A DNA stretch of 54,313 bases, taken from assembly GCA_049968235.1 (NCBI GenBank), contig JBMFRC010000022.1, positions 1 through 54,313 of the forward strand, in the 5' to 3' direction. The notes under the pieces are model-generated. The model made no database searches. It saw only the letters and a program-made list of their open reading frames with translations, and was not told the DNA's origin. The stretch comes from Candidatus Hydrogenedens sp. Its GTDB lineage: Bacteria; Hydrogenedentota; Hydrogenedentia; Hydrogenedentales; Hydrogenedentaceae. Positions 9,380 to 54,283 of this stretch are shown here, in pieces. The translations under genes were made by a program, and so were the position numbers. How positions within the stretch are numbered: the stretch's first letter is position 1; the number at the start of each line of letters is the position of its first letter.

Positions 9380-9836
9380 AAAAATACCCTTTCACTTTTC
9401 ACAAATTTTATGATACCACAAATCATGTTTTATATATCCCTCTTCCCCACATCCTCTTTGAATAATAACTTATATATTTTTTATCCTCATTATTAAACAC
9501 GAACAGAGTGTTAATATCAGATTTTTCTGATTTGGGGGATAGGGAGTATGTCGCCCAAGAGTTTATAAGATTAAGATGTCGGGATTTGTCTCCGATAGAA
9601 TTTTGTTCACTGTATCTGTCGAGGGGAATATTTAAATACCTCCGTAAAATATTTTTACAATCCTGAGATAAAACGGTTATGACCCGTGAATTGAAAATTA
9701 TTTTCAGATAGTCTTTGGATGATAGGAATACTATTTTACTGTCTTATTTTTTTTCACCCATTTTATTTTGTATATCACATTGGTTTAAGTTGTTTTGTTT
9801 GTAAGAAAAGGTAACAGTGTCTATGGCTCAAATAAT

Positions 9837-11291
9837 CTATTCCAATCCAAGTCGTTTGATTCTATATTGTAGGGTTGTTCGTTTAATTCCTAATAATTCA
9901 GCGGCACGAGTTTTGTTCCAATGGAACTTTTCTAAGGCTTTGAGGATTAGTTCTCTTTCCAGTCGTTCCGTATGCTGTTCCAGAGAAAGGTCTTCTTTAT
10001 CTTGTTGCTCATTTTTGATTTCGGATTCTACCTGTCGGTTTGTTTCTATATAGTTTTGTAATTCAAAAGGCATCTCATTTATCGTAACCTGAGGTCCTGT
10101 TGCTAAAACGATAGCACGTTCCATTATATTTTCCAATTCGCGGATATTACCGGGCCAGGGGTATCGTAAGAATAAATCAATAACCTCATCATCAACTTCA
10201 TATACCTCTTTTCGCAACTCCATACTAAATTTGTTTAAGAAATGTTCTACCAATGCCGGTATATCATCCGGTCGTTCCTTTAACGGCGGAACGTATATAG
10301 AAAACACGTTTAGGCGATAATAGAAATCTTCACGAAATGTTCCCTGAACAATTGCCTGTCTTAAATCACGATTCGTTGCAGCTACAATCCGCACGTCTAC
10401 TTTAATAGTTTCTGTTCCACCTACGCGTTCGAACTCTCCATCCTGAAGTACGCGTAGTAGTTTTACCTGAACACTGGGGTCAATTTCACCCACTTCATCG
10501 AGGAATAAAGTTCCCTTATGAGCCCGTTCGAATCGCCCTTCCCTTCTTGAAGTAGCCCCTGTAAATGCTCCCTTTTCATGACCGAATAGTTCGCTTTCCA
10601 GTAATGTTGGAGCTAATGACGCACAATTCAATGCGATAAAAGGTTCATCCCGTCGTGGACTTGCTTCGTGGAGAGCCCTTGCTACAAGTTCTTTCCCTAC
10701 ACCACTGGGACCTGTTATTAGAACCGAACTTTTGGTGGGTGCTACTCGTGCAATAATTTGACGTAGTTGTCTTGTTTGTGCACTTTCTCCTACCAGATGT
10801 TGCACAGAGGGATGTATCCATGTCTGGGCTCTGTTCGTATTTTTTATTTGTATTTGTTTTGCCAGTTTGGAAATTTTATTTTGTAAAACCGCCAATTGGA
10901 AGGGCTTTGTAATAAAATCGTGAGCCCCTAATCGCATTGCTTCAACAGCGATTTCGATAGTCCCATATGCGGTGATAATAATTACTTCTGTTTCGGGTGA
11001 TACACTTTTAACATAACGTAGGACATCCATACCTGACTTGCCGGGCATACTTAGGTCTGTAATCACAATGTGATATAAATGACGGGTGATTTTGTCTATA
11101 GCCTCCTCACCCGTAGATGCATTACTTACTTTGTAACCCATTTCCAGGAAAGTTTGAGAAAGCAAATTCCTCATATTTTCCCGGTCATCCACAATAAGAA
11201 TGTGAATAATGGCTTCTTTTTCCTGTGTGTTTGTTGACATATTTTTTAAATTTTCCTTCTCGGTTGGTGCTGAACAAATTGTGTTTTCCAT
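9837..11291 (-). CDS. sigma-54-dependent response regulator (NtrC family: REC + AAA+ + Fis HTH)
   Basis: ILIVDDRENMRNLL receiver domain; ITGPSGVGKELVARALH Walker A; GHEKGAFTGA (GAFTGA motif); C-terminal HTH LLGIKRTTLQYRIKRL. Confidence 0.9.
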   Translation of the reverse strand: MENTICSAPTEKENLKNMSTNTQEKEAIIHILIVDDRENMRNLLSQTFLEMGYKVSNASTGEEAIDKITRHLYHIVITDLSMPGKSGMDVLRYVKSVSPETEVIIITAYGTIEIAVEAMRLGAHDFITKPFQLAVLQNKISKLAKQIQIKNTNRAQTWIHPSVQHLVGESAQTRQLRQIIARVAPTKSSVLITGPSGVGKELVARALHEASPRRDEPFIALNCASLAPTLLESELFGHEKGAFTGATSRREGRFERAHKGTLFLDEVGEIDPSVQVKLLRVLQDGEFERVGGTETIKVDVRIVAATNRDLRQAIVQGTFREDFYYRLNVFSIYVPPLKERPDDIPALVEHFLNKFSMELRKEVYEVDDEVIDLFLRYPWPGNIRELENIMERAIVLATGPQVTINEMPFELQNYIETNRQVESEIKNEQQDKEDLSLEQHTERLERELILKALEKFHWNKTRAAELLGIKRTTLQYRIKRLGLE

Positions 11292-22422: not shown

Positions 22423-22456
22423 GTTTTCCCAAAACAATTTTATAAGTTTGCGAGCC

Positions 22457-22700
22457 CTGAACAAGTGGTTTAAGAGGCAGGGTATAAATTATACATGTTT
22501 TTACGAGATAGAATCCCGATGAGAAATTAAAATACAAGAGTCCGTGTCTCACTTTTCATATTTTATTTGCTATTTTCTGTTCGTTTTTCTATCTTTTTGT
22601 TATCTATACATATCACTCATTATACATCCGTTTTAATTATATACAGTCATTAACAAGAAATGATATGCTCCTCTCTCTATCCCTCTCCGTGTTCTCCGTG
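22457..22700 (+). repeat. dispersed ~250-bp intergenic repeat, copy A
   Basis: About 80% identical by eye to 31122..31377. Shared blocks include GTATAAATTATACAT, TTACGAGATARAATCC, ATGAGAAATTAAAATACAAGAG, CGTTTTTCTATCTTTTTGTTATCTAT and ATTAACAAGAAATGATAT.CTCCTCTCTCT. Confidence 0.8.
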
Positions 22701-30970: not shown

Positions 30971-31121
30971 AGATACATAAAAATTGATTATTAATGAGTA
31001 TCGAGGAATAAGTTCTATATCTTCATCTTATTTACACAAACCCATTGACTAACACTATCTTATTTATTTTATCAGACTAATAAAAAAAGACTTGACAAAT
31101 ACTTTATTTTGTATGAGACCT

Positions 31122-31377
31122 CTGAACGATTGTATAAGAGGTCGGAGTATAAATTATACATTTTCTTACGAGATAAAATCCTAATGAGAAATTAAAATAC
31201 AAGAGCCTATATCTCTCTTTTTACCCATTTTATTTGTTATTTTACATCCGTTTTTCTATCTTTTTGTTATCTATGCATATTTTCCCTTTTGCTCTCTTAA
31301 TTTCCCATACATCCTCTTCAAATCATATGCAGTTATTAACAAGAAATGATATACTCCTCTCTCTGTGTCCTCTGTTG
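31122..31377 (+). repeat. dispersed ~250-bp intergenic repeat, copy B (same orientation as copy A)
   Basis: See copy A. It ends in a 16-bp-stem hairpin (31361..31411). Confidence 0.8.
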
Positions 31378-31960
31378 TAAAAAGAATATAATCACCACAG
31401 AGAACACAGAGAAAACATCATATACTGTTTAACAATGCATAAAATAGTAAGGATGAAAGCCTTTGCTCTCCCCAGTTCGTTTTATATCCTTCGCTCTCTA
31501 TCCACCTCTGCTCAAATTCCTCAATGGTATCACCTCTTGCATCTGTCTCTAAAAAATATCTGTAACGGGTCGGTTTCTGATGAGGCATCTCGTAATCTAT
31601 AAAAAAAACTTGTTTGCTCTATCTTTTCGGTATACAGCAATGACCTTTCTTCATTTTTAGTTTTTCCTTGTTTTGTTATTTAACCCACAATAGTTCTGCT
31701 GTATTTATACTACTTCTCTCTATTCTCGTTTCATTTTTTCTCTCACCCCTTCTCGTATATAATTTATATCATCTAACTCGGATGACTTATTCAAAACTCT
31801 CATGTATATTTTCATGCTCAGGTAAAATATGCTTATTTGTATTTATTCCTTTTATAAAACCTATTAATAATAAGCCTTTGTTAGATACAGAGGCTATGGT
31901 CTGAAAGATAAGCGAAGAATGTCACAGTAAATACTGCGTATTTTAGAAAACATCCTGAGA

Positions 31961-32062
31961 ATTTGGATAAAACAAAAAAGCAAGGATAGTAATAACTTCC
32001 TTCAACCACACCTTCAAGGGTGCCTTATTTGGATAAGGCAAAAAAGCAAGGATAGTAATAAC
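31961..32062 (+). repeat. CRISPR-like mini-array: two 36-bp direct repeats (2 mismatches) separated by a unique 30-bp spacer
   Basis: R1 31961..31996 ATTTGGATAAAACAAAAAAGCAAGGATAGTAATAAC; R2 32027..32062 ATTTGGATAAGGCAAAAAAGCAAGGATAGTAATAAC; spacer TTCCTTCAACCACACCTTCAAGGGTGCCTT is not repeated. Confidence 0.3.
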
Positions 32063-45967: not shown

Positions 45968-46043
45968 TGGAGCTGGAACGGGGAATCGAACCCCGGACCT
46001 GGTCATTACGAGTGACCCGCTCTACCGACTGAGCTATTCCAGC
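45968..46043 (-). tRNA. tRNA-Thr (anticodon CGT)
   Basis: The minus-strand 76-nt sequence GCTGGAATAGCTCAGTCGGTAGAGCGGGTCACTCGTAATGACCAGGTCCGGGGTTCGATTCCCCGTTCCAGCTCCA folds as a cloverleaf (7-bp acceptor stem, GTTCGATTC T-loop, anticodon loop CTCGTAA) with an encoded CCA. Confidence 0.9.
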
Positions 46044-46111: not shown

Positions 46112-46187
<76 letters not shown>

Positions 46188-49619: not shown

Positions 49620-50036
49620 ATGGATGCTTACTTATTTATTTGCCTCGGAACAAGAGATGTTCAAATAGAAAATTCCATTAATTTAGAAGGGGATTTGCAT
49701 AAAACTTTAGAAGAGTGTAAATATCCATGGAAAGAGAAAGATAAAAACTTTCGTGGGTTAAATGTTCGCAAATTGGGACATTGGTTATATGATAATTTTG
49801 ATAAAGTTAAAGAAATAATTAGAATACCATTAAGTGAACCATTTTTAAATCACATAGAAAATGAAAGTCATACTATAAAACAGATTTATCTTATCGCTAC
49901 GGACCAACAAAAAACAATTGAAGAAAGTGCAAAGGAACATTTAGAAAGAGATACCTGTATAATAGCAGATTTCTTAAAAGAAAAATTTTTCCCGTATTTC
50001 TTTACTAAAAAAAGATGCTTACCCTTCCCGATATAG
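49620..50036 (+). CDS. N-terminal part of a CARF-HEPN (Csm6/Csx1-like) protein. It is out of frame with the next ORF at an A7 tract (50007..50013).
   Basis: The first strand MDAYLFICLGTRDV resembles the CARF beta1 plus G[TS] motif. A 22-bp overlap with the next ORF and insertion of one A fuse the two frames (…FFTKK-K-MLTLPD…). Confidence 0.5.
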   Translation: MDAYLFICLGTRDVQIENSINLEGDLHKTLEECKYPWKEKDKNFRGLNVRKLGHWLYDNFDKVKEIIRIPLSEPFLNHIENESHTIKQIYLIATDQQKTIEESAKEHLERDTCIIADFLKEKFFPYFFTKKRCLPFPI

Positions 50037-51112
50037 TTACTATTACTCTCAATGATCCGCCCAATAGCTATGATTTAATGATAAAAGAATTTAGTGATAA
50101 GTTAGGGAAAATTTATGGAGATAATGAAAATCAATATTTAGTCTGTGCAGAAATTACAGGAGGGACCCCTCACATTAATACATCTATTATTTTAAATTGT
50201 ATCAAATTTTTTAGAAACAAAGTTACATTTATCTATAAACCTGAAAATTCAAACGACATTAGGTCTCTTAATATTGCCAAATATATATTAAGTTCATATG
50301 AACATGAAAATTTAAAACAACTTGTTGAAAGATATGATTTTGATGCAATTGTGCAGAATAAAAATTATTCAGACACAATCGGAAAGTTATCTTTATCTGC
50401 GTGCTATAGAGGAAACTTTGATTTTTTTTTTTATAAGAAAGAAATAGACAAAATGTATGATAATGTACCTAAAAATATGCTTGAGATATTAAGAAATGAT
50501 GCGTCTAAATTATGCGAAAAAGAACCCAATTCAATATTTAATGAACTTTACTGGAATACAGTAATTATGTGGAAGCGAGATGAGTGTGCAAATTTTATAG
50601 GAAGAGTCTGGAGGATTATGGAAGCATCTCTTCAATATTCATTGCTTGAAATTGTAGGATGTACATGGGATGAAATGAAGGAAAACTCAAATAAAAAAAC
50701 TTTTGAAAATAAATTTAGAAAGTGGGCAGAAGAAAATAAAGAGTTTTTAAAATATTTAGAAAAACAACAACATATTGCTCCTAATATGCCTATGCTTATT
50801 GCTTGTATCGATTTTCTTTCAGAGAGGGGACCGAACAGGGATAAATATAAAAATATTCAAAAGTGGGCGCAAAAACTGAGATCTTTTGCAACGATAAGAA
50901 ATAAATCAATTATAGCACATGGTTTTTGTGACATATCTAAGGAGATGATTAAGAATACCCTTGAAGATAAAGAAGAGGATATACTTATTATTGTTAGGTC
51001 ACTGATTGAAAGTGTAGGGATTCAATTGTCGGAGGAGAATCCATTTGATATTTTTAAAGAACTTTTAATAAATATTAATGAACAATATTTGAATGAAACT
51101 CTATATGTTTAA
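50015..51112 (+). CDS. C-terminal part of a CARF-HEPN (Csm6/Csx1-like) protein: CARF core motif plus C-terminal HEPN Rx4-6H motif
   Basis: LVCAEITGGTPHINTSIIL resembles the CARF D/N-x-T-G-G-T-K motif. ATIRNKSIIAHGF contains R-x6-H (HEPN Rx4-6H) about 65 aa from the C-terminus, as in Csm6. This gene looks visibly AT-richer than its neighbours. Confidence 0.5.
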   Translation: MLTLPDIVTITLNDPPNSYDLMIKEFSDKLGKIYGDNENQYLVCAEITGGTPHINTSIILNCIKFFRNKVTFIYKPENSNDIRSLNIAKYILSSYEHENLKQLVERYDFDAIVQNKNYSDTIGKLSLSACYRGNFDFFFYKKEIDKMYDNVPKNMLEILRNDASKLCEKEPNSIFNELYWNTVIMWKRDECANFIGRVWRIMEASLQYSLLEIVGCTWDEMKENSNKKTFENKFRKWAEENKEFLKYLEKQQHIAPNMPMLIACIDFLSERGPNRDKYKNIQKWAQKLRSFATIRNKSIIAHGFCDISKEMIKNTLEDKEEDILIIVRSLIESVGIQLSEENPFDIFKELLININEQYLNETLYV

Positions 51113-52064
51113 CAATCTTAGTTTTACAGTTCAGCGGGTTAGTTTTTTAGCGGAGGAGCCCTTGTTGGTGCCAGAATATAAGGGTTCGATGATTCGTGGT
51201 GCATTGGGTCATGCCTTAAAAAAAGTTTCCTGTGCGTTGAAGAGGTTTACCTGCCCGGAGTGTCCTATTCGTGAAAAATGTGCTTATAGTATGTGCTTTG
51301 AGACTCCTATCCCAAAATCATCAGAGATTATGAAAAAATATCCTAAAGCACCTCATCCCTATATTCTCGAACCCCCTATTGAGTCAAAAGAGCGTTATGA
51401 ACCCGGCGAGGTATTTGAGTGTAATTTAACCCTTGTTGGTAGAGCAAAGGATTTCTTACCGCATTTTATCTATGCACTTGATGTGATGGCTGAGGAAGGT
51501 TTCGGTAGAGGACGAGGAAAATCTAAACTTATATCCCTTGATTATCTTACTCCTGAAAACAAATGGAACGCCCTATATTCGCCTGAGGCAAATGAATTCT
51601 TAGGGGAACCGTATTCCTTCAAGATACAGGATATTTTGCAAAAGAAAGAGCAACTTTTGTTGGATAAGAGAATAGAAATACAATATATAACACCTACACG
51701 ATTAGTTATAGACGGGAATCTCCATGATACGGGAGAAATAGCATATATCCTACCTGGATTACTTCGTAGACTTACTTTGTTGCAATACTTCTTTTGTGGT
51801 GGTTATTTAGAAAAGGATGTGATTTCTCTAGTAGAAGCGGGGAAAAATCTACAACCTTTACATTCTGCATTCCAGTGGCAGGATTGGGTCCGTTATTCAT
51901 CTCGTCAGGATAGAAAAGTAATTATGGGAGGTTTTATAGTGTCGATAGTATATGAGCAAATTCCTTCTGAAATCCTTGAAGTTCTTTGTTGGGGTGAAAG
52001 GTTACATATTGGCAAAGGAACTGTGTTCGGATTAGGTAAATATAATCTTCTGCCTGCAAACTGA
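51093..52064 (+). CDS. Cas6-like RAMP-superfamily protein (solitary, no CRISPR array nearby) with a Cys cluster
   Basis: N-terminal LLVPEYKGSMIRGALGHALKK parallels the Cas6 N-terminal strand-helix (e.g. PfCas6 FKVPYNHQYYLQGLIYNAIKS). The extreme C-terminal glycine-rich loop HIGKGTVFGLGKY follows GxGxxxxxGxG. There is a CxxC...C...C cluster (CPECPIREKCAYSMC). It overlaps the upstream stop by 8-20 bp and sits 4 bp before the next gene. Confidence 0.55.
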   Translation: MKLYMFNNLSFTVQRVSFLAEEPLLVPEYKGSMIRGALGHALKKVSCALKRFTCPECPIREKCAYSMCFETPIPKSSEIMKKYPKAPHPYILEPPIESKERYEPGEVFECNLTLVGRAKDFLPHFIYALDVMAEEGFGRGRGKSKLISLDYLTPENKWNALYSPEANEFLGEPYSFKIQDILQKKEQLLLDKRIEIQYITPTRLVIDGNLHDTGEIAYILPGLLRRLTLLQYFFCGGYLEKDVISLVEAGKNLQPLHSAFQWQDWVRYSSRQDRKVIMGGFIVSIVYEQIPSEILEVLCWGERLHIGKGTVFGLGKYNLLPAN

Positions 52065-52068
52065 CAAC

Positions 52069-53232
52069 ATGTGCGATACGATTGTTTTTGTAGATAGTCA
52101 AAAAGTTTTATTTGCAAAGAATTCGGACCGTGAGGTAAACGAATCTCAGGTTCTTCTCTGGCAACCGCGTAAAAATTACACGAAAAATGAATTACTACAA
52201 TGCACATATATAACCATTCCCCAGGTTCGTGAGACCTATGCCATTTTAGTATGTAAACCTACATGGATGTGGGGTGCTGAAATGGGGACGAATGAGTTTG
52301 GCGTTACTATTGGGAATGAAGCGGTATTTACCAACCAACCTTATGCTAAAACAGGTTTGACAGGGATGGACCTGATTCGTCTTGCTTTAGAACGGTCCAT
52401 CACCGCAAAACAAGCATGTGAAACAATTATTCAACTTATAGAAATTCATGGTCAGGGTGGAAATTGTGGATACAAAAAAACGACCTACTATCACAACAGT
52501 TATATAATCGCAGATACCCAGGAAGCTTATGTTCTTGAAACCGCTGACAAGAAATATGCTGTGGAAAAAGTTTATGGGTGTCGTGCTATTTCCAATGGCT
52601 TGACTATTAAAGATTTTAAGGAAAAATACAGCAGTCAAATTAAAAGTTACTTTACTCGGTGTAATCAACGAAGAAATGCTATGGAACAGTGCAGACAAAA
52701 AACTCTGACCGTATCGGATATGTTTCAACTACTTCGTTCCCATAAGAATGAAAACTATTATCCAGAATATCATTGGTTTCACGGAGGGATGGATGCACCC
52801 TGTATGCATGCGGGCGGACTCTTCCTTAATTATCAGACTACTGCGTCATGGGTTGCAGAACTTACTCCTAAACATTGTGCCTATTGGGTTACTGCAACTT
52901 CAACTCCATGTATCAGTCTATTCAAACCTGTAAATATATCACAACCTTTAAGTAATAAATTTTGTAATACAAAAGGGGAACTTAAAGATTCTTTCTGGTG
53001 GAAACATGAAAAATTCCAACGACTGGTTATGAAAAATCCTTCACAAACCTTTCCTGTTTTTATTGATAAGAAAAATCAGATGGAAAACGAATGGCTTCAA
53101 AAACCCCCAGTCTCTGAAACTGCTTTCCTCACACATGAACAATTACTTTCTCATTGGACCGCACAGATACTTAAACTTAACATACAGGATACCCGTCCTA
53201 TATGGACACGTTACTTCTGGAATAAAATTTAG
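52069..53232 (+). CDS. secernin-like peptidase (MEROPS C69 family, Ntn-hydrolase with Cys2 nucleophile)
   Basis: MCDTIVFV...VLFAKNSDREVNE...PTWMWGAEMGTNEFGVTIGNEAVFT...GMDLIRLALERSITAKQACETIIQLIEIHGQGGN is collinear with eukaryotic secernin / C69 dipeptidase signatures, as far as I recall them (WLWGAEMGANEHGV...; GMDLVRL...HGQGGN). Confidence 0.7.
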   Translation: MCDTIVFVDSQKVLFAKNSDREVNESQVLLWQPRKNYTKNELLQCTYITIPQVRETYAILVCKPTWMWGAEMGTNEFGVTIGNEAVFTNQPYAKTGLTGMDLIRLALERSITAKQACETIIQLIEIHGQGGNCGYKKTTYYHNSYIIADTQEAYVLETADKKYAVEKVYGCRAISNGLTIKDFKEKYSSQIKSYFTRCNQRRNAMEQCRQKTLTVSDMFQLLRSHKNENYYPEYHWFHGGMDAPCMHAGGLFLNYQTTASWVAELTPKHCAYWVTATSTPCISLFKPVNISQPLSNKFCNTKGELKDSFWWKHEKFQRLVMKNPSQTFPVFIDKKNQMENEWLQKPPVSETAFLTHEQLLSHWTAQILKLNIQDTRPIWTRYFWNKI

Positions 53233-53671
53233 AACAACTTCTACATAAAAAGCCGAAGCAAAAAAATAAACAGTAAGATAACAATTCCATCCTTTTACTA
53301 ACCAATCAGTGCAAAATTTACTCATATTCATAAGTATGATTTACCTTTGAGTACCCCGTTGAGGTGCTATACTATTCACATAATAAAAATTAGATATAAG
53401 ATAAAAATTCATGATTCTAATCCTATTAAAACTTGAATAATCTTTATTCTCAATACTTTATTTTGCAGAGTAATGTTTTAACTTGGAAACTAGTTTCTCC
53501 CCAGGGGACATGGAGATGCCCCGGAGTTTCATCCAGATAACCCCACCAGTTCATATAGACCTATAAGTTTTCCTAATATGTAGATTTATCTTTGAAAACA
53601 TAAAGTTTATAATAATTATATTATTAATTTATATAATATATTAATATTATTATATCAATTTCCTTTATTTA

Positions 53672-54283
53672 TTATTTACAAGGATGGTAATTATATTTAT
53701 TACACGGTATGTTATCGGCTGTTTTTATTCGAGAAATTCCCCATATTTTTTTACAGTTTAAATCTAACCATATGACACCCATTATTTGCTTTTGAGTATA
53801 TTCGTCAATATATGTAAAATCTATTTCCCATACATATGAAGAAATATATTGTTTTTCCCCTCTTTTGTCAAACTCGAACTCATTTTTATTCGGGGCGATA
53901 ACTAATTTAGGTATAACATTATCTAATATTTTGGGATTATATGTATTTACATCCAGTTCTTCTTTTATCAGTTCTCTCGCTTTTTGATATATAATTGTTA
54001 TCGGAGGTTCCTCTGGAATATCTACTTTTGTAGGACAAGGAAATTTTCTATAAAAAAATCTTTTAATGGTTTTCTCTGTCTTTGAAAGAGAAACAATAAA
54101 TGTCTGAGAACGGTCAGGAATACCATCCAATGAAAAATATAAAATTATATTAAGTAAATCTTTTGACGAATCGTTTTTTATTTTATAGCAATTTTTATCT
54201 TCCGGGAAATCGAAATATTTTAACAACTTATTAATTTTTTCAATGAAAATTTCTTCTTGCGAAGAAATATCCTTTTCAGACAA
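53672..54283 (-). CDS. hypothetical protein (AT-rich, Lys/Asn-rich)
   Basis: Long ORF with no recognisable motifs. Confidence 0.35.
   Translation of the reverse strand: MSEKDISSQEEIFIEKINKLLKYFDFPEDKNCYKIKNDSSKDLLNIILYFSLDGIPDRSQTFIVSLSKTEKTIKRFFYRKFPCPTKVDIPEEPPITIIYQKARELIKEELDVNTYNPKILDNVIPKLVIAPNKNEFEFDKRGEKQYISSYVWEIDFTYIDEYTQKQIMGVIWLDLNCKKIWGISRIKTADNIPCNKYNYHPCK

Follow-up and report, generated by a model that had tools for sequence, protein, structure and literature searches.

Why does a gene for a Cas6-like protein stand between a ribonuclease gene and a peptidase gene, far from any CRISPR array? The question is raised by a contig of Candidatus Hydrogenedens sp. (JBMFRC010000022.1, assembly GCA_049968235.1), the whole of which, 54,313 nucleotides (nt), is called the window here. 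An earlier note on this DNA described a solitary Cas6-like RAMP with a glycine-rich loop and a cysteine cluster, flanked by a HEPN RNase gene upstream and a peptidase gene downstream, and those neighbors are indeed present. The analysis reported below attributes the odd location of cas6 to a simple history, in which the end of a locus of type III-A was moved and then retained, the protein being otherwise an ordinary Cas6. It also draws attention to one lead that seems new, a four-cysteine, endonuclease III-like motif common to the whole of the family to which this Cas6 belongs. Coordinates of the features discussed are collected in Table 1.

The cas6 Gene and Its Protein Family

Profile searches assign the protein to Cas6 over its full length. 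The PADLOC model PDLC01477 (Cas6) matches residues 9-319 of 323 with E=1.2e-86, a second Cas6 model reaches E=1e-66, and Pfam PF10040 (CRISPR_Cas6) scores 37.1 bits (E=5e-9; cut-off 25); the match to NCBIfam TIGR01877 is weak and lies under its cut-off. PF27225 (AF_1859_N) and PF10040 are precomputed as a pair on all 42 of the 42 homology-search matches, the window protein (P0001) included, and two tandem RRM/ferredoxin-like domains are present in the protein. A search of PDB sequences with the whole protein as a single query returned noise only, and a family profile was required to reach Cas6 structures: the Cas6 domain of MMB-1 (E=2e-6), Thiomicrospira Cas6-RT-Cas1 (E=4e-5), and 6FJW (E=2e-4), in alignments that run chiefly over the C-terminal domain and the glycine-rich loop. 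Because the family profile reaches solved Cas6 structures, the earlier assignment to the RAMPs is correct, and profile searches did not place the protein outside them. Judged by its sequence, the gene is a genuine Cas6, already annotated as such, and belongs to a large type III-associated family.

Residue numbers (C47, G307, Met5) are counted here from the start of the 323-residue open reading frame (ORF). Met5 is favored as the translation start, as homologues begin MF..L.. at this point, and its ATG overlaps the csx1 stop codon (ATGTTTAA). The GenBank protein (MGC8739380.1, 298 amino acids) begins 25 codons past the first ATG and 21 past Met5; this start is too short, and the first beta strand is lost with it.

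An alignment of 40 homologues shows which residues are conserved. In the glycine-rich loop, a RAMP/Cas6 signature, G307, K308, G313, and G315 are invariant, and the loop aligns with the same loops in the MMB-1, Thiomicrospira, and Streptococcus thermophilus Cas6 structures. All family-invariant residues are kept in the window protein. Cas6 active sites vary; the candidate catalytic residue here is His40, located in helix 1 (RGALGHALKK), with His at this position in only 23 of the 40 homologues and Tyr, Trp, or further residues in the rest.

Comparison with solved structures brings out what is distinctive about the family. Relative to the type III-A Cas6 of S. thermophilus (6FJW), with which it shares 13% identity, the window protein is ~80-100 residues longer and has an insertion in its N-terminal domain that carries four conserved cysteines. 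At the sequence level, no solved structures match better than the Cas6 domains of Cas6-RT-Cas1 proteins (Marinomonas MMB-1, 6DD5; Thiomicrospira, 7KFT), which, like the window family, are type III-associated. They are, however, fused to RT-Cas1, their alignment is limited to the C-terminal part, and they offer no solved counterpart of the cysteine segment. In outline, the family combines two RRM-like domains and a C-terminal glycine-rich loop with an insertion near the N terminus that carries a predicted metal site of four cysteines.

A Conserved Four-Cysteine Motif

The protein contains five cysteines, C47, C54, C57, C63, and C68, the last of which is kept among close relatives only. The other four form the motif C47-x6-C54-x2-C57-x5-C63, in which C57 and C63 are invariant across the homologue alignment and C47 and C54 are present in at least 90% of sequences. 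Two variants that each lack one motif cysteine, P0012 and P0028, gain an extra cysteine nearby; since they compensate in this way, four ligands appear to be maintained, which indicates a metal site. When the family profile was searched against 1.84 billion representatives of 50%-identity clusters, 4,255 relatives were found at E<=1e-30. The pattern C-xn-C-x2-C-x5-C occurs in 143 of the 147 best new family representatives (n=6 in 98 of the 143), and the cluster therefore marks, on this survey, a Cas6 family of very large size and is no peculiarity of the window copy.

What the motif binds can be approached through its resemblance to known sites. Endonuclease III and MutY bind [4Fe-4S] clusters via C-x6-C-x2-C-x5-C. 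A sub-profile of the cysteine segment (residues 30-96), searched against all PDB sequences, gave as its best matches the [4Fe-4S] loops of endonuclease III (8A5C, 8A5F, and 4UNF, E 0.008-0.01, followed by 8A5G and 4UOB). ROS1 and Escherichia coli Endo III (2ABK) stand lower in the list, after two unrelated weak matches, so that the seven best meaningful matches are all of the endonuclease III-type loop; no Zn finger scored in this search. The similarity extends beyond the cysteines to the residues that flank them (CTWTRPKCGKCILRERC in endonuclease III, CALKRFTCPECPIREKC in the window; shared C..C.LRE.C). The cysteine spacing is thus that of the endonuclease III/MutY/ROS1 glycosylase loop, although those enzymes have a helix-hairpin-helix fold whereas Cas6 is built on RRM domains, and the motif is short, with E ~0.01.

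That the cluster is a structural Zn site and not an iron-sulfur cluster is a reading to which we give slightly less than an even chance. Four cysteines within 17 residues, including one CxxC, could bind Zn, and the family has both aerobic and anaerobic members (Nitrospira, Poribacteria). When scanned by itself against Pfam, the segment matched no meaningful domain and no Fe-S domain. Weighing against Zn are the exact endonuclease III/MutY spacing in those 98 motif-bearing representatives, the Fe-S loops that make up the top meaningful structural matches, and the form of the motif in P0028, CxxCxxCxxC, which is ferredoxin-like. Because the endonuclease III match is marginal and the Pfam segment scan empty, Fe-S and Zn are regarded as about equally likely. 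The cysteine cluster of the earlier note is present and conserved, and it resembles an Fe-S motif at least as much as the Zn site suggested there. In either case, the motif probably holds a structural metal, [4Fe-4S] or Zn, that would shape a basic RNA-binding loop, the basic residues of which are K50, R51, R60, and K62. Within the literature searched, queries combining Cas6 with iron-sulfur, zinc, cysteines, or AF1859 returned no paper on the motif, and no structure either.

The csx1-cas6 Pair as the Tail of Type III-A Loci

The gene directly upstream of cas6 encodes the HEPN RNase. PADLOC Csx1/CARF_HEPN models match both of its ORFs, the N-terminal one (CARF) with E=2e-13 and the C-terminal one with E=4e-49, and Pfam Cas_Cas02710 (Csm6 HEPN) matches the latter with E=1e-8. 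The gene thus shares with the Csx1/Csm6 ribonucleases both CARF and HEPN domains, the R-x6-H motif, and the profile match; it differs from them in being frameshifted and in evolving faster than the adjoining cas6. Cas6 is accordingly not solitary: its neighbor is Csx1, a type III accessory.

The usual setting of the pair was established by scanning GTDB representative genomes with a profile of 14 closer Cas6 sequences, which yielded 80 loci. Of these, 46 span 15 kb or more, and in 39 of the 46 a simple tblastn and repeat scan placed cas1/2, effector genes of type III, or an array near cas6. The locus of P0010, whose Cas6 is 50% identical to that of the window (L005/L006), is laid out as csm2-5, cas1, cas2, a 75-repeat array, a helicase gene, a Csx1-like gene, and then cas6, and in P0024 cas6 is flanked by one Cmr module and one Csm module. 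A Csx1-like gene lies directly 5' of cas6 in every Hydrogenedentota locus, and in four of them (L013, L018, L019, and L020) the csx1-cas6 pair is preceded by an array, csm genes, and/or cas1-cas2. On this evidence type III-A loci of the Hydrogenedentota usually end, on their 3' side, with csx1-cas6. The HEPN part of the "module" with Cas6 and a peptidase envisaged in the earlier note is therefore the normal tail of a III-A locus. Unlike the cas6 of the Staphylococcus epidermidis cas10-csm2-6-cas6 operon, that of the window is separated from csm genes and array.

The repeats associated with this Cas6 family are ~37 nt long and end in ...GACCTGATGAAGAAGGGAT(C/T)GAAAC; those of Poribacteria end in ...TTCCCGYTYGAAGGGAATTGAAAC. 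The 37-nt repeats of relatives have either GGGAT(C/T)GAAAC or GGGAATTGAAAC as their ending. In the arrays of L006, L013, L018, L020, L022, and L046-L089 the 3' half of the repeat is conserved across phyla (…CCTGATGAAGAAGGGATYGAAAC or …CCCGYTYGAAGGGAATTGAAAC), and the 5' third is variable.

A Displaced Block Retained in One Hydrogenedens Clade

The arrangement seen in the window, a GFO/IDH/MocA oxidoreductase gene on the minus strand followed by csx1, cas6, and the dipeptidase gene, recurs in seven more assemblies (L010; L001/L002/L003/L011; L004; L007/L012; L090, a 538-kb contig; L092; and L098), eight in all. Metagenome-assembled genomes that bear the block include GCA_035378955.1, GCA_035359475.1, GCA_017880035.1, GCA_036769585.1, and GCA_026415215.1. 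Gene junctions within this block measure 3-8 nt in five assemblies, whereas L090 and L098 have junctions of ~40-55 nt; beyond the block, the flanks differ from one assembly to the next. In L017 (395-kb contig) the csx1-cas6 pair is likewise alone. The 38 other ORFs of the window include no cas gene when compared with PADLOC; a match labeled "RtcR CARF" at 9837..11291 is an ordinary response regulator of the NtrC type. It appears from these comparisons that csx1-cas6 split from the csm genes, cas1/cas2, and array in an ancestor common to one clade of Hydrogenedens, and that the displaced pair landed between the oxidoreductase gene and a housekeeping dipeptidase gene.

The dipeptidase is assigned to the Peptidase C69/secernin group by its N-terminal Cys nucleophile (Met-Cys2-Asp-Thr) and its profile matches (AAT, 27.5 bits, E=3e-6, cut-off 23.2; Peptidase_C69, 22.5 bits, E=7e-5, cut-off 23). 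More than 7,800 homologues at ~50% identity or above are named dipeptidase, secernin, or peptidase U34, and in an outgroup Hydrogenedentes locus (L091) the dipeptidase gene lies near a GFO gene without csx1-cas6. The adjacency looks incidental because the family is a huge housekeeping one and the outgroup has the enzyme without the pair. The simplest history, insertion of csx1-cas6 upstream of a resident housekeeping gene, likewise makes it probably incidental. The dipeptidase gene is probably co-transcribed with cas6 and probably unrelated to it in function, which would make the peptidase a bystander. A new CRISPR accessory of the Ntn-hydrolase type was considered and judged unlikely, given a ubiquitous secernin/C69 family that is present without csx1-cas6 in the outgroup.

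The state of the two displaced genes bears on whether they are still in use. In the window, csx1 is split by a frameshift at an A7 run, where an eighth A would restore the frame (...TKKKMLTLPDIV...). In tblastn comparisons the gene aligns in two frames with intact orthologues of 510-520 amino acids (L001, L004), intact Csx1 orthologues as a whole measuring 506-520. CARF and HEPN are consequently not joined in one intact frame, although both domains and the RNKSIIAH motif are present. The frameshift could be mutational in origin, an error of homopolymer assembly, or a site of slippage. Among block relatives with full contig cover, csx1 is intact in five of six (L001, L004, L010, L090, and L092).

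Divergence from L001 differs along the block, with amino acid identities of 87% for GFO, 81% for HtrA, 77% for Cas6, 70% for the dipeptidase, and 43-47% for Csx1. The window and L001 cas6 genes differ at a proportion of nonsynonymous sites (pN) of 0.14 and of synonymous sites (pS) of 0.74; proportions are given and not dN/dS because synonymous sites are saturated. These values indicate that cas6 is under strong purifying selection within the block, and the gene is undisrupted even in lineages with as little as 55% identity. These findings bear directly on the proposal that the pair is a decaying relic of a lost type III-A locus, with the csx1 frameshift as the first sign of decay. The split gene, the absence of partner genes from 54 kb, and the far faster divergence of csx1 than of cas6 would suit such a relic. 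Persistence of an intact, constrained cas6 through saturated synonymous divergence is not expected of one, and csx1 is whole in the five relatives just named, so that decay appears very unlikely.

The 36-nt Repeat Pair

No CRISPR array was found in the 54-kb window, and, as had been noted earlier, a pair of 36-nt direct repeats 19 kb upstream of cas6 is the only repeat candidate and the sole CRISPR-like geometry. The pair lies in a housekeeping stretch between pheA and queC, and no third copy, even a degenerate one, occurs in the window. Its spacer holds a small palindrome (CACCTTCAAGGGTG).

The repeats had been suggested as a substrate for this Cas6, that is, as a mini-CRISPR at 31961..32062. 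The suggestion draws on the geometry of the pair and on its ends (ATTTGGATA..., ...GGATAG..AAC), which by eye resemble some family repeats. The resemblance was put to an nhmmer profile of 21 Cas6-family-associated repeats and to pairwise alignment with shuffles. The pair is not among the best 40 profile matches listed, the best of which (E=0.54) lies elsewhere in the window, and 9% of random 36-mers from the window align to family repeats as well as the pair does, a result that is not significant. The repeat core also has no match in public genome and metagenome contig collections, neither of which holds the window itself. Because of these repeat-profile and random 36-mer results, together with the location, the presence of two copies only, and an unstructured, AT-rich sequence, the pair is rejected as a likely Cas6 substrate; a mini-CRISPR cognate to this Cas6 is extremely improbable.

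A Proposed Action in Trans for a Type III System

The function considered most plausible for the displaced gene, and held with moderate confidence, is the processing of CRISPR RNA (crRNA) in trans, on behalf of a type III system whose genes lie elsewhere. Cas6 would bind ~37-nt repeats transcribed from arrays elsewhere in the genome, of the type that ends in ...GGGAT(C/T)GAAAC in relatives, and its cut would leave an 8-nt 5' handle. The resulting crRNAs would load into a Csm complex, and cyclic oligoadenylate made by Cas10 would turn on Csx1. Cas6 genes located outside cas operons have been known since 2006 (PMC1462988). Such genes, like that of the window, lie away from arrays and effectors, and their products are presumed to act in trans; unlike those earlier cases, displacement is here fixed clade-wide at a housekeeping locus and includes csx1.

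A candidate partner is available in the genus. A type III-A Cas10/Csm1 (P0188, HOQ31673.1) is labeled Candidatus Hydrogenedens sp., and the block-bearing metagenome-assembled genome (MAG) GCA_035378955.1 encodes the dipeptidase HOQ33592.1, 1,919 accession numbers away. This gap fits the accession block of one MAG, and the Cas10 and the block therefore probably belong to one genome. The contigs that carry type III-A cas10 loci of Candidatus Hydrogenedens (L093-L097) have no cas6 or csx1 in the 10 kb upstream. All five independent assemblies break ~50 nt into csm3, and a gene for an RtcR-like CARF-sigma54 activator lies directly upstream of cas10.

Several observations weigh against action in trans. 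An array, csm/cmr, and cas1/2 are absent from the 54-kb contig and from within 8-10 kb of the block in relatives, and nhmmer found no repeat of the family-consensus type in the window or in related block loci. The link between the Cas10 and a block-bearing genome is one of accession-number proximity. The position of the candidate catalytic His40 is occupied by Tyr in L090/P0008 and by Trp in other homologues, and csx1 is frameshifted in the window contig.

Some of these points would also suit a module that has left CRISPR biology, an exapted csx1-cas6(-dipeptidase) operon in which Cas6 would read an RNA of host or phage that is not from CRISPR, while Csx1 would answer to a nucleotide signal of another source. 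No array or effector lies near the block in any assembly examined, and the pair stands alone in L017. Eight assemblies keep the block, stably inherited, at a housekeeping site, with Cas6 evolving at about the pace of HtrA and with tight junctions to the dipeptidase gene. Nevertheless, none of the family-invariant Cas6 residues has changed, as would be expected if the type of substrate had stayed the same, and no conserved candidate RNA or repeat adjoins the block. The dipeptidase is, moreover, a generic housekeeping enzyme that occurs without the pair in the outgroup, and Hydrogenedens does have a type III-A Cas10, which probably belongs to a MAG that carries the block. Such an array-independent role is unlikely. 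Its more elaborate version is distinctly unlikely: a csx1-cas6 operon welded to the dipeptidase that would work without array or Csm/Cmr, with an Fe-S Cas6 recognizing non-CRISPR RNA, as an RNA-processing or abortive-infection module. crRNA processing in trans remains the preferred account of the displaced pair.

Other Features of the Window

An intergenic element of ~250 nt is repeated at 22432-22678 and 31097-31364 (75-91% identity), with a partial copy at 9751-9786, and possibly represents a small mobile element or a regulatory one. Tandem motifs, short and of the form CACAGAGA(A), occur at 31396-31417, near this element, and at 658-684. A type IIG restriction-modification enzyme, clipped by the contig end, is represented at 71-697 by its C-terminal part (PADLOC E=6e-39). 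At the other end, the dipeptidase gene is followed on its 3' side by a very AT-rich 440-nt spacer (53233-53671), beside which lies a 203-amino-acid ORF on the minus strand (53672-54283) without a family match. Relatives lack it and carry PI-PLC genes at this place instead; the region of the ORF may have been inserted recently. Scanned with Rfam, the window yielded two tRNA genes and nothing else.

Table 1. Positions of csx1, cas6, and other features discussed, numbered along the window.
Feature	Position	Strand	Details
csx1	49620..51112	+	CARF + HEPN; motif R-NKSIIA-H; frameshift-split into ORFs 49620..50036 and 50015..51112
A7 run at which csx1 goes out of frame	50007..50013	+	Direct sequence reading and two-frame ortholog alignment
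cas6 ORF, 323 amino acids	51093..52064	+	51093 is the first in-frame ATG
cas6 from Met5, 319 amino acids	51105..52064	+	AF_1859_N + CRISPR_Cas6 domains; type III-associated family
Four-cysteine motif C47-x6-C54-x2-C57-x5-C63 (CALKRFTCPECPIREKC)	51231..51281	+	Predicted metal site, [4Fe-4S] or Zn
Glycine-rich loop H-I-G-K-G-T-V-F-G-L-G-K (HIGKGTVFGLGK)	52005..52040	+	RAMP/Cas6 signature, C-terminal; invariant glycines/Lys
C69/secernin-like Ntn-hydrolase dipeptidase	52069..53232	+	Met-Cys2 nucleophile; Pfam; 4 nt past cas6
Two 36-nt direct repeats	31961-31996 and 32027-32062		34/36 identical; 30-nt spacer
Two tRNA genes	45971-46043 and 46115-46187	-	Rfam; between response-regulator gene and htrA

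Implications

The conserved 3' half of the family repeats could act as a search model for the arrays that are missing from the neighborhood of the displaced block. By retaining csx1-cas6 at a housekeeping locus, this Hydrogenedens clade offers a clean natural case for the physical uncoupling of Cas6 and CARF effectors from the effector complex. If the four-cysteine motif does hold an iron-sulfur cluster, Cas6 would bring a redox-sensitive cofactor into crRNA maturation in many type III systems.

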